From contig OZ252282.1 in NCBI GenBank assembly GCA_965250035.1, forward strand, positions 657,395 through 721,394: 64,000 nucleotides of DNA. Direction: 5' to 3'. A program made the position numbers and the translations under genes. The first letter of the stretch is position 1. Each line of letters opens with the position of its first letter. This DNA is from Enterobacterales bacterium. GTDB lineage: Bacteria; Pseudomonadota; Gammaproteobacteria; Enterobacterales; GCA-2746155. Positions 29,484 to 34,694 of this stretch are shown piece after piece. The notes beneath the pieces are model-generated. The model was not told where the DNA came from, made no database searches, and worked only from the letters and a program-made list of their open reading frames with translations.

Positions 29484-32400
29484 ATGAAGATTTGGGTTAT
29501 AAGTTGTTCAGTATTATTAATATTCTCTTGCATAATAAATTGTGAAGTTGTTTATGGTTCAACTGTACCACCTACTACCACATATGAGAATAATCGTAAT
29601 TGTCACGGTGTTACTAATAGTGCGAGTTCAATTTATTTTGGTGAAAATGACGATGTTCACTATATTGGGCCTAACCCGCTACCTTTGGTTATTCCTACAC
29701 TTGCAGAAATAAACACATGCGCAGAACTAATTTCTTTCCCCACTTTCACAAAAAATTCGAATGGAGCAACATGTACATATTCTCAGGGTAGTGCACTTTC
29801 ACAAAATGAGTACAACCCACAAGGGCAAATTCACTACACTCCTGATATTTATGCAAACTATCAATGTTCTGATGGGACGGAAAGTTATAGGAGAGTTGGA
29901 TTTATCCTTCATGAATCAATCCCTAATATCGTTTGTGACACTCCTGGTTTTCCAAATGAGATATATCATGCAAATGGTACAGTGTGGGAATGTGGTGAAC
30001 CGCATCAATGCAATAAACCTGAAATTTCTAATTGTCCGACGATTGGTGATGGTGGTAATCAACACAGAGTTGAAGTCGCTGAAATGTTCAATTTGCAATA
30101 TAAAAGCATACCAGAAGTAGACTATTCTTCATGCACGATTGAGCAACCAGATGCTAGAACTAGGTTTGATGGAGAGTGGACTCATAATTATTCTAATAAA
30201 TTAGAAAGGCATAATGATTTAGAGCCTGTGATAATCTCTATTCACTCCGGATCGAACGACTACGTCTTCACTGCTGGTAGTAATGATAGCTGGATGGGGT
30301 CTGCTTCACAGCAGGCTGAATTAGAAAATGTCACAGATGAACAACAAAATTTAATTGGTTACAAATTAAATAAGATTAATGATACCAGTGAGTATTATTC
30401 TTTAGATGGATTGCTTACTACGATCCAATACCGCAACGGTACTGAAACTAATCTAGACTATAATACTCAGGACCAATTAGTTGAAATAACTGATCAATTC
30501 AATAACTCAACACAGCTAGGCTATGATGCTAATGGCAATTTAATTACCATTACAGATTCTAACAACGCTGTCACAACCCTTGAGTATGATACTACTGGCA
30601 AAGTTATAAAAATTATTTTTCCAGATGACACTCCAGAAACAAATGATAATCCGTATACCGAATTTGTATATAACGATCAGAATAATTCAAACTTAATCAC
30701 TAACGTATTTAACGAGAGTGGAGCAGAAATTAAATCTTGGAGTTATGATGCACTTGGTCGATTATCGTCTGAGATTATTCTAGATAATATAGTTAATAAA
30801 ATTTATACCTATAACTCAAATGGAACAACCACGGTAACTAATTCACTTGGAAAGAATAATATTTATCACTTTGAAACTTATGATGGCGTAAAAAAAGTTA
30901 CTTTAGTAGAAGGATTGCCGACAGCTAGTTGTGCAGGGGCAAATCAGCAAAGAGTTTACGATTCAAACGGGTTTCTTGTAAGTAAGATCGACTGGAACGG
31001 GATTGAAACTACATATATTCGGAATAGCAAAGGGCAAGAAATATCTAGAACTGAGGCTGTAGGTACGTCTGAAGAGAGGACAATAACAACCGAATGGCAT
31101 CAAACCTTTAATCTTCCAATAAACATCTCTGATTCGACACAATCAATATCATTCACTTATGATAATAATACTGGAAGTCTATTATCTAAAACCGTCAGTG
31201 ACTTGACTGGTGATAATAGTGGAGGTGAAAATGATGACGATATAGTGAATCCAATTGTCACCATTTTATCTCCATCTGATGGGGATGTATTAAACGGAAC
31301 TGATGTAATAACGTTTACTGCAACAGCAATTGATGAAAGAGACGGTGATATCAGTGAGAATATTCGATGGTTTACTTCTTCAGAAGCCTACTTAGGTCAA
31401 GGTGCTAGCATCAATGTTACTCTTGATGAAGGTGAATATGGAATTATCGCATTAGCAAATGATGCTAGTGGAAATTATAGTGAATCAGAAATCGAAATTA
31501 CTGTTACTAACATTGTTGAAACAGCTGTAATTACAATTCACTCTCCTGTTGATAACGCAGAATTTACAACAAGAGACAACGTACTGTTTAATGCTATCGC
31601 AACATTTGAAGAAAGTAATATATCAAACGAACTTGAGTGGAGTTCAGATATTGATGGCGTGTTAGGAGTAGGTCCTTCGATTAATGTTAGTTTAACTGAA
31701 GGAGTTCACATCATTTCTGCGTATATTCCATGCGAAGGAGGTGGTGAATGCGATGAGTATGTAGTAGAAAATATAACCTTGACAATCACTGCAGTTGCCT
31801 CGCCCACATTATCTATTATCTCACCGGAGAATAATTCAAGATATATTGCTTCTGAATCGATAACACTAAGTGCATCTGCATATTTGGGTACAGAAAATAT
31901 TAGTAATCTAGTTGTCTGGTACTCAGCTGTGGATGGTAGTTTAGGAGTAGGAGCAACAATAGAAGTTCAATTAAGTGAAAATACCCATTTTATCTTAGCA
32001 TCTGTATGTCCTGAAGGTGGTGAGGAATGTGATGAAGTGGAGTATGCCGAGGACTCACTTACTATTACTGTGGTAGCAGCCAATACAGCGCCGACAGTTA
32101 GTATTACTTCACCAACGGATGGTACCCAGTTTAACAATGCACAAAGCATAAACTTTGTTGGCACGGCGATGGATGCCGAAGATGGTTCACTCTCGACGAA
32201 TATTGCCTGGGCCTCTAATCTTGACGGCGAATTAGGCAGTGGCGCGAGCATCAGCAACATTCTAAGTGTTGGAAGTCATCAAATCACGGCGAGTGTGACT
32301 GATGCCAACGGTCTAGCCTATACAGAGATAGTGAATGTTACAGTGGTGGCAGCGAATACAGCGCCAACCATTAGCATTACATCTCCAACAGATGGCACAA

Positions 32401-34694: not shown

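Follow-up and report, generated by a model that had tools for sequence, protein, structure and literature searches.

An Rhs half-shell protein with a tail of twelve predicted Ig-like domains, encoded next to a putative toxin-bearing partner half

The window analyzed in this work is a stretch of 64,000 nucleotides from the genome of an Enterobacterales bacterium (GenBank assembly GCA_965250035.1, contig OZ252282.1), and all positions given are positions in this window. It encodes several proteins with Rhs (YD-repeat) sequences, and A1–A4, B1, and B2 are the names used here for the corresponding open reading frames (ORFs; Table 1). This study concerns A4, in which an Rhs scaffold is followed by a long tail made up of two sets of tandem repeats, and its neighbor B2, which starts 5 nt past the A4 stop codon. 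The sequence AAGGA located 9 nt 5′ of the A4 ATG is a plausible Shine-Dalgarno sequence; a scan for promoters and terminators returned fewer sites than were found in shuffled sequence.

Table 1. Positions of the A and B genes, their parts, and the candidate immunity genes in the 64,000-nucleotide window, with the evidence for each.
Feature	Position	Strand	Evidence
A1 (15110–17530), A2 (17648–20065), and A3 (20185–22560), same scaffold as A4 with C-terminal Laminin_G_3	15110–22560	+	Pfam, BLASTP, MAFFT
B1, putative partner half for A1–A3, toxin domain with HEFRH motif	22575–25454	+	Pfam, sequence
A4 ORF, 1736 aa: signal peptide, variable N-terminal domain, Rhs half-shell, linker, five Ig and seven Y_Y_Y repeats	29484–34694	+	ORF call, Pfam
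A4 predicted Sec signal peptide, MKIWVISCSVLLIFSCIINCEVVYGS	29484–29561	+	By eye from sequence, no predictor
A4 Cys-rich N-terminal region	29562–30173	+	aa ~27–150 unalignable to A1–A3 (BLASTP, MAFFT)
A4 Rhs-repeat half-shell scaffold, aa 231–573, ending in the anchor FTYDNNTGSLLSKTVSD (the seam)	30174–31202	+	Pfam, BLASTP, MAFFT, PDB/profile matches
A4 acidic linker LTGDNSGGENDDD, 13 residues, directly after the anchor	31203–31241	+	Sequence
Five Big_7-type Ig-like repeats (Ig1 from 31242, Ig2 from 31512, Ig3 from 31794, Ig4 from 32076, Ig5 from 32349)	31242–32621	+	Pfam, profile, AlphaFold2
Y1 and Y2, 100 and 99 aa, 83% identical	32622–33218	+	Pfam Y_Y_Y, AlphaFold2 (pLDDT ~90–96)
Y3–Y7, 98–99 aa, near-identical	33219–34691	+	Tandem Repeats Finder, DNA comparison, AlphaFold2 (Y3, high pLDDT)
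B2: own putative signal peptide, Rhs shell, Rhs-associated core (…SDPIGLEGGLNTYGY), unique C-terminal toxin	34700–37663	+	Pfam, NCBIfam, PDB matches
Conserved B core of 2291 bp, with 98.9% identity to B1 22648–24937	34797–37086	+	DNA comparison
Small ORF right after B2, candidate immunity gene	37678–37968	+	Position only
Imm32 ORF	38312–38638	Same as run behind B2	Pfam

BLASTP aligned residues 151–574 of A4 with A1, A2, and A3 at 37–41% identity, and all three alignments stopped at A4 residues 571–574. The scaffold ends here in the sequence FTYDNNTGSLLSKTVSD (residues 557–573, last nucleotide 31202), hereafter called the anchor. Beyond it, A1–A3 run into a laminin G domain (Laminin_G_3, LamG), which A4 lacks; the A4 tail comprises 1163 residues from the anchor on, or 1150 if the first repeat (nt 31242) is taken as its start. 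The RHS repeat family PF05593 was matched by A4 with an E value of 9.8e-19 and by B2 with 3e-64, and TIGR01643 (NCBIfam) was matched as well. No Rhs-associated core was found in A4 itself, the core being present in B2 only. Among the Rhs cocoons in the Protein Data Bank (PDB), A4 matched the N-terminal part and B2 the C-terminal part of 8H8A; 7Q97 and 8CP6 were also matched. At the other end of A4, the first ~150 residues could not be aligned with A1–A3 by BLASTP or MAFFT. The remainder of the Cys-rich region takes the place held by a DUF6531 plug, which is located just upstream of the scaffold in relatives described below as fused. A Pfam scan of residues 27–230 gave no match, and the N-terminal domain was therefore dropped as a pointer to a target.

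The first set of repeats in the tail consists of five immunoglobulin (Ig)-type units of 90–94 residues, which begin at A4 residues 587, 677, 771, 865, and 956. Their pairwise identity is 29–38%, with the exception of Ig4 and Ig5 (58%). Two units contain a Cys-flanked loop, CPEGGEEC in Ig3 and CEGGGEC in Ig2, and each loop is a four-residue insertion relative to the other three repeats. The Pfam family Big_7 (PF17957) was matched by the whole of A4 with an E value of 2e-18 (67.2 bits against a cutoff of 24.1). Scored singly, the units reached 25.0, 14.7, 23.0, 29.8, and 30.9 bits, three of the five lying over the cutoff. A profile built from the five units matched PDB entry 9KVU ("bacterial immunoglobulin domain B1") over its full length with an E value of 7.7e-8. 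In an AlphaFold2 model covering Ig5 and Y1–Y3, the Ig5 part had a predicted local distance difference test (pLDDT) score of only 40–50 because aligned homologs were lacking, and Ig5 was therefore modeled alone using an alignment of 8 repeat units. The resulting model had seven strands, a pLDDT of 96, and a predicted template modeling (TM) score of 0.86. A Foldseek search with this model returned 9KVU (TM 0.84, root-mean-square deviation 2.0 Å), followed by FN3-like, PKD, and Rib modules.

The second set begins at A4 residue 1047 and runs up to the stop codon. The motif TGGSGNYEY is present seven times, at spacings of 99, 99, 98, 98, 98, and 98 residues. Y3–Y7 are 93–100% identical to one another, and Y1 is 57% identical to Y3. 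At the DNA level units 4–7 are identical at 293–294 of 294 nt, which indicates a recent tandem expansion; Tandem Repeats Finder reported 6.0 copies with a period of 294 at 32922–34679 (score 2893). The Pfam family Y_Y_Y (PF07495) was matched by the whole of A4 (E value 4.7e-17, 62.1 bits against a cutoff of 26.6) and by Y1 and Y2 taken singly (29.8 and 27.2 bits), and a single unit of the Y3–Y7 type gave no match. The 'triple tyrosine motif' model of NCBIfam scored 121 bits on A4, far under its equivalog cutoff of 842 bits. We found 35 homologs of the array with 29–42% identity; most carry PF07495, and some carry type IX secretion system (T9SS) tails, SPOR, or fn3. The GNYEY sequence occurs in seven of seven units of A4, and Y38, E39, and Y40 are invariant or nearly so across 38 aligned units. 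A profile of 38 Y-type units matched the BIgB domain of Sas6, an Ig-like spacer domain described in a preprint, with an E value of 5e-4. In the AlphaFold2 model of Ig5 and Y1–Y3, the three Y units had pLDDT values of ~90–96 and 7–8 strands each. In Foldseek, the best match of this model was 6XI3, a tandem extender from a large adhesion protein (E value 8e-11), and FN3 tandems of contactin, titin, and fibronectin came next.

Both repeat types are thus predicted with high confidence to be Ig-like β-sandwiches, and at the whole-protein E values of Big_7 and Y_Y_Y the resemblance to these families is not due to chance. Treating them as one family was rejected, since the hhalign probability was 2%, and the Ig-type and Y-type repeats are therefore distinct. 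The C terminus of A4 is a plain repeat (...EDMYSTVD), and no binding tip, anchoring motif, or sorting motif could be recognized there. The G+C content at third codon positions (GC3) is 0.28 in the scaffold, 0.21 in Ig1–3, 0.32 in Ig4–5, and 0.40 in Y3–7; because it climbs stepwise toward the end of the gene, this suggests a mosaic origin of A4.

These results agree in most respects with a preliminary description of this DNA, made from the sequence alone. It had A4 collinear with A1–A3 up to the anchor, which the BLASTP and MAFFT alignments bear out over residues 151–574, the homology of the N-terminal part holding at the identities given above save for the first ~150 residues. Its placement of the start of the tail at 31250 and its length of ~1150 residues were essentially right. 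The seven repeats of 98–99 residues with an ATGGSGNYEY-type motif that it listed were all recovered (units of 98–100 residues), but the Y_Y_Y label given to them is valid for the whole protein, Y1, and Y2 and not for the five near-identical units on their own. Likewise, there are five repeats of the first type as described (~95 residues), and a CxxGGxxC loop is found in Ig3, but the second such loop, in Ig2, reads CxGGGxC. An Ig-like sandwich fold had been proposed for the repeats; the AlphaFold2 and Foldseek predictions agree with it for both types, and since the attempt at refutation failed, this structural reading stands.

To place A4 among its relatives, we used a degenerate-pattern scan covering one genome per species, which yielded 31 loci encoding the scaffold. 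The match to the scaffold stopped at query residue ~560–582 in all 31. At split loci the A ORF ended 2–7 residues past the anchor. At fused loci the ORF extended for another 530–1050 residues that aligned to B1/B2 from residue ~21–34 to ~800. These loci were pooled with proteins from an exhaustive profile search, giving ~130 mapped relatives; the top 150 of that search were dominated by giant multi-repeat RHS proteins, and rows with a single full-length match were used. In the pooled set, the anchor is separated from the counterpart of B1 residue 21 by 0–17 residues in ~100 fused proteins, and ~27 split A proteins end 1–4 residues past the anchor. Something else follows the anchor in only six proteins: A1, A2, A3, P0070 (a fourth LamG-bearing A paralog encoded in the same genome), A4, and P0125 (a metagenomic fragment). 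A module at the C terminus is the exception among split A proteins. A word-index homolog search with residues 1–573 of A4 returned only generic RHS proteins, mostly at ≤34% identity, and the proteins of the window itself were not among them. The profile version of this search gave 555 RHS hits, none of which joins RHS with Laminin_G_3.

At each of the 11 split loci that were examined, the ORF following A opens with its own signal-peptide-like sequence, and at eight of them TSYTYN..G...DGPRTDV follows directly behind it, as it does in B1 and B2. The fused proteins align from just past the signal peptide of B, that is, from the mature N terminus of B1/B2. Several split loci have tandem A paralogs before a single B (three at L001, four at L005, and two each at L002, L007, L011, and L012). 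These paralogs share their last ~400 residues and differ in the first 120–190, and the same pattern is seen in A1–A4. Judged from these sequences, the split is functional rather than a product of decay, because the next ORF has its own signal-peptide-like start, the order of tandem A genes followed by B recurs, and the A4 stop and B2 start are separated by 5 nt. Since the fused relatives run from the scaffold straight into B-like sequence, A corresponds by alignment to the plug and the first third of the Rhs shell, and B to the remaining shell, the Rhs core, and the toxin; in the ~100 single-chain homologs the two parts belong to one continuous shell.

This comparison changes how the modules beyond the anchor are to be read. 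The preliminary description had one YD scaffold carrying interchangeable distal modules, and the exchange of Laminin_G_3 on A1–A3 and P0070 for Ig plus Y_Y_Y on A4 is as it stated. The scaffold, however, is not self-contained, as A makes up just the N-terminal third of the Rhs capsule and the modules are located at a gene-fission seam. Further module types, which it had suggested looking for, were indeed found at the same place in relatives. At locus L006 (11065–15735), the B half has ~650 residues of leucine-rich repeats (LRRs; LRR_4, ten copies) behind its signal peptide and ahead of the Rhs shell, along with a weak sub-threshold TSP3_bac match, so that the graft is on the other side of the A–B seam. 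A second seam is located just before the Rhs core, where the gene is cut in two Ca. Accumulibacter genomes (L023, 12998–15007; L025, 12999–15011). The downstream piece there comprises a signal or transmembrane segment, a dockerin-like stretch, three Big_7 domains (E value 8e-48; 30% identical to the Ig repeats of A4, E value 8e-11), the Rhs core, and a toxin. A Halioglobus locus is also cut before the core, and here a lipobox and small Cys domain form the start of the downstream piece. Two single-chain relatives have insertions before the core, namely Golvesin_C in L020 (residues 1274–1393 of ORF 9089–13990) and ~186 in-frame residues of unassigned type in L029. No graft found to date exceeds the A4 stalk in size. 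P0125 contains at least 95 residues of acidic DxDxDG repeats past the anchor, with no Pfam match in the tail; it was dropped as a complete third module type, as the gene runs off a 2.3-kb contig and the tail is incomplete. In a separate observation on the LamG region of A3, residues 680–790 also matched the C-terminal part of the NCBIfam model for the fimbrial protein TafC with an E value of 3.7e-12, below the cutoff, hinting weakly at a lectin domain of the adhesin type.

In B2 the Rhs-associated core was matched by PF03527 at residues 697–730 and by TIGR03696 at residues 723–804, and its DPxGL motif reads ...YITSDPIGLEGGLNTYGY. Up to the core, B1 and B2 share 97% identity; past it they are unrelated, the divergence being confined to the signal peptide and the toxin. 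The toxin domains of the three B proteins (24963–25454 in B1, 37112–37663 in B2, and that of P0074, encoded elsewhere in the genome) are all different. The B1 domain has a zincin-like HEFRH motif, and P0074 ends in a glycine-zipper region, its tail giving a sub-threshold match only. Neither the B1 nor the B2 toxin domain matched a Pfam family, and the toxins were therefore dropped as pointers to a target. The small ORFs downstream of the B genes gave no significant family match in Pfam. At the DNA level, the shared part of B1 and B2 forms 2291-bp direct repeats (22648–24937 and 34797–37086) that are 12 kb apart; if they recombined, A4 would be lost and the toxins exchanged. Behind B2, positions 38000–45700 contain ~15 small ORFs on the same strand, including Imm32, DUF2059, a helix-turn-helix protein, and GNAT, a run that may be an array of orphan immunity genes or cassettes. 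The low-GC island ends near rsgA at 45764. In a 137-kb contig from the Logan assembly of ERR14835554 (L033), the rsgA of the window is located 5.9 kb from the contig end, so that this contig breaks inside the region downstream of B2; A3 is present in this source and A4 is absent.

Taken together, we lean toward the interpretation that A4 and B2 are two halves of one Rhs toxin capsule that is split over two genes, with the stalk grafted at the seam. It is quite probable, given the single-chain fused relatives and the analogy with TcB–TcC, that the two proteins are exported separately by Sec and assemble as a closed capsule around the B2 toxin in the manner of TcB and TcC. The 12 Ig-like domains of the A4 tail are attached exactly at the fission point. 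Because 12 domains are far too large for the interior, the stalk would project outward at the seam as a flexible arm, very roughly 40–50 nm long if extended. Such an arm would act as a spacer or adhesion arm that sets the attachment site and the reach of the capsule, and LamG would do the same for A1–A3. The near-identical 294-bp units would allow the length of the arm to change by unequal recombination. Release across the outer membrane would probably use a type II-like route. Genes for type II secretion system (T2SS) components E (an MshE-type ATPase) and F are located upstream of the A genes in L002, L006, and L014 (and L017), that is, in 3–4 of the 31 loci, and this adjacency may be a clue to the export route. 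For Xanthomonas and Ralstonia, Rhs families with a link to T2SS have been proposed (bioRxiv 10.1101/2025.05.08.652813). A conserved accessory gene as a marker of the secretion route was dropped, these two components in so few loci being the only candidates.

Several observations weigh against this interpretation. The assembly of A with B is a proposal drawn from sequence comparison, and the signal peptides were judged by eye. T2SS linkage was seen in just those 3–4 loci, and secretion-system genes were not found among the Pfam-scanned ORFs of the window at 8–46 kb. The architecture of the A4 stalk is a singleton among the relatives found; it has no recognizable ligand-binding tip, anchoring motif, or sorting motif, and domains of its types are known more for spacing than for binding. 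The unit copy number comes from one 3.59-Mb assembly, and A4 is missing from the Logan (short-read) source. It is plausible that the stalk would act as an adhesin or spacer, and the targeting or adhesin role that the preliminary description saw for the A C terminus is a hypothesis. Spacing or dimerization is what Big_7 and Y_Y_Y domains are best known for (PMC5121618; Sas6 preprint), and the Y_Y_Y domain of BT4663 has a spacer and dimerization role (PMC5121618). The stalk may grip a target or the producer's own surface. In the latter case, the stalk, and LamG on A1–A3, would hold the capsule on the envelope or matrix of the producer as a retention tether or spacer rather than recognize a target. 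According to a proposal by Zhang et al. (2012), polymorphic toxins of the Sec/T2SS type are anchored to the producer surface by their LamG and SH3 domains (PMC3482391), and a stalk without a tip domain would fit such a function. The A4 sequence, however, contains no lipobox consensus, LPXTG, T9SS C-terminal domain, or PEP-CTERM, none of these is among its Pfam matches, and the modules grafted in relatives include LRR and lectin-like ones, as are typical for the binding of foreign ligands. We consider retention on the producer unlikely, although it deserves to be kept in mind.

Alternatively, A4 alone would be a repetitive surface or biofilm adhesin, its Rhs part serving as a structural body, and B2 an independent toxin that does not require A4. 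The resemblance of the stalk to the extenders of giant adhesins (6XI3) and its near-identical tandem units, which are typical of such adhesins, point in this direction, and with ~960–990 residues the B proteins are near in size to many stand-alone RHS-core proteins in the databases. What makes this explanation improbable is the set of ~100 single-chain relatives that join the A and B parts with 0–17 residues between them, together with the conservation of the tightly spaced A-then-B order across diverse lineages. In addition, A stops in the middle of the shell without a closing element, and B lacks the DUF6531-type N-terminal plug that precedes the scaffold in fused relatives. In another reading, the stalk has no selected function and came about by a recent chimeric accident or through faulty assembly, for instance by recombination or mis-joining of a Y_Y_Y-array gene onto A4, with an inflated number of repeats. 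The singleton architecture and the GC3 steps along A4 would be expected for a chimera, and four identical 294-bp units are hard to assemble, A4 being missing from the short-read source. An accident of this kind would nevertheless have to account for 3.5 kb that are in frame, with 12 intact domain units, clean unit borders, and high predicted confidence for the fold of both domain types. The graft is also at the exact residue where LamG is found in four paralogs and other modules in relatives, and the contig is 3.59 Mb long. We regard this last explanation as very improbable and continue to favor a two-gene capsule with a stalk grafted at its seam.

Among the closest known systems, TcB–TcC (4O9X, 4IGL) would be similar in its working to the capsule proposed for A4 and B2. 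There too, an RHS capsule is formed from two adjacent gene products, the second of which has an Rhs core autoprotease and a hypervariable toxin, and fused versions occur in nature; in its sequence, B2 matches TccC/YenC2. Unlike in Tc toxins, A1–A4 have no SpvB or FG-GAP propeller in Pfam scans, the ORFs of 8–46 kb that were scanned with Pfam gave no TcA-type domain, each half has its own putative signal peptide, binding modules are located at the seam, and the N-terminal half rather than the toxin half occurs in 2–4 tandem paralogs. A4 and B2 would resemble the Tc BC pair in working and are not a Tc member. The Rhs effectors of the type VI secretion system (RhsA 7Q97, Tre23 7PQ5, Tse5 8CP6, and RhsP 8H8A) were matched by B2 with E values of 1e-33 to 4e-44 and by the A4 scaffold with 4e-11 to 2e-7, and they share a variable C-terminal toxin behind DPxGL. 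In contrast to these effectors, A1–A4, B1, and B2 have putative Sec-type signal peptides and no PAAR (Pfam) or VgrG-binding N terminus, and here the capsule is distributed over two genes with external Ig or LamG modules. Sec-dependent YD/Rhs toxins (WapA, the T2SS type of Zhang et al. (2012), and the T2SS-linked proteins of Xanthomonas and Ralstonia) have signal-peptide export and LamG, Ig, or lectin accessories in common with the proteins studied here, a T2SS link has been proposed for them, and T2SS E/F genes adjoin 3–4 related loci, but they have been described as single polypeptides. LamG, Ig, and lectin domains on or among the RHS repeats of Sec/T2SS-type polymorphic toxins were reported by Zhang et al. 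(2012; PMC3482391), and the decoration of RHS toxins with adhesion domains is therefore a known theme.

With respect to the stalk itself, the extenders of giant adhesins (6XI3; Rib, Big) also consist of tandem Ig-like domains with near-identical units, 6XI3 being the best structural match of the Y array and Rib, PKD, and FN3-like modules matching Ig5. Unlike those adhesins, A4 has no RTX hits in Pfam, no type I secretion signal, no retention module, and no ligand-binding tip, and its array is carried on an Rhs half-shell. BT4663, a representative of the Bacteroides hybrid two-component sensors, has an all-β Ig-like Y_Y_Y domain with the G-x-Y-E-Y motif, present as a single domain after two β-propellers in a sensor, versus seven in tandem on a putative toxin capsule here. 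Teneurins likewise combine a YD shell with Ig-like and other extracellular binding domains and function in adhesion, and A4 and B2 match their shell weakly; they differ in being eukaryotic, single-chain, and membrane-anchored, with accessory domains of other types and at other positions. A literature search of limited coverage returned no genetically split Rhs protein besides TcB/TcC, no fission with alternative N-terminal halves or grafting at the new termini, and no C-terminal stalk of 12 domains. Rhs polymorphic toxins that bear accessory binding domains are a known kind of protein. What appears to be undescribed is a Sec-exported capsule encoded by two genes, with alternative N-terminal halves and a stalk of 12 Ig-like domains at the fission seam.

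Two further regions of the window contain genes related to defense. A tRNA-Ser(GCT) gene (8032–8124) and a partial duplicate of it (12693–12783), nearly identical over ~60 nt at the 3′ end, flank a gene for a 1230-residue Upx-like anti-phage protein (ORF 8684–12376), which scored 526 bits with the NCBIfam model (cutoff 1900) and 474 bits with PADLOC. The region looks like a small defense islet integrated at the tRNA gene, just downstream of alaS. A SMODS-associated NUDIX protein (28212–29027, minus strand; Pfam E value 2.8e-35) is encoded alone between the two Rhs loci and also matches the PADLOC models for a 2TM effector and for a DRT-associated NUDIX protein; no cyclase gene was seen adjoining it.

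Rhs toxins are mostly understood as single chains that are fired by the type VI system, and how Rhs proteins with signal peptides leave the cell and find their targets is a question on which this locus bears. Combining A4 with its relatives, we tentatively suggest, as a possibility that falls somewhat short of being probable, that Sec-exported Rhs toxins may form a modular two-piece, and sometimes three-piece, system whose fragments assemble outside the cytoplasm. Alternative N-terminal halves would compete for one toxin half, and the seams would be sites for the grafting of binders. The N-terminal halves (A1–A4 here, 2–4 elsewhere) would differ in their first 120–190 residues, and here also in the LamG or Ig/Y_Y_Y modules grafted at the seam, so that one toxin would be provided with different targeting heads, a polymorphism at the delivery end that would mirror the polymorphism at the toxin end. 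The locus suggests a whole family of separately exported halves with binders at the cut site and tandem alternative front halves. If this is true, target range could be changed by exchanging the front half or its appendage and not the toxin alone, and the freshly amplified repeats of A4 hint at ongoing tuning of arm length. The seam would then also be a natural permissive site at which designed binders could be attached to a capsule for protein delivery, an approach that is being tried with Tc toxins.

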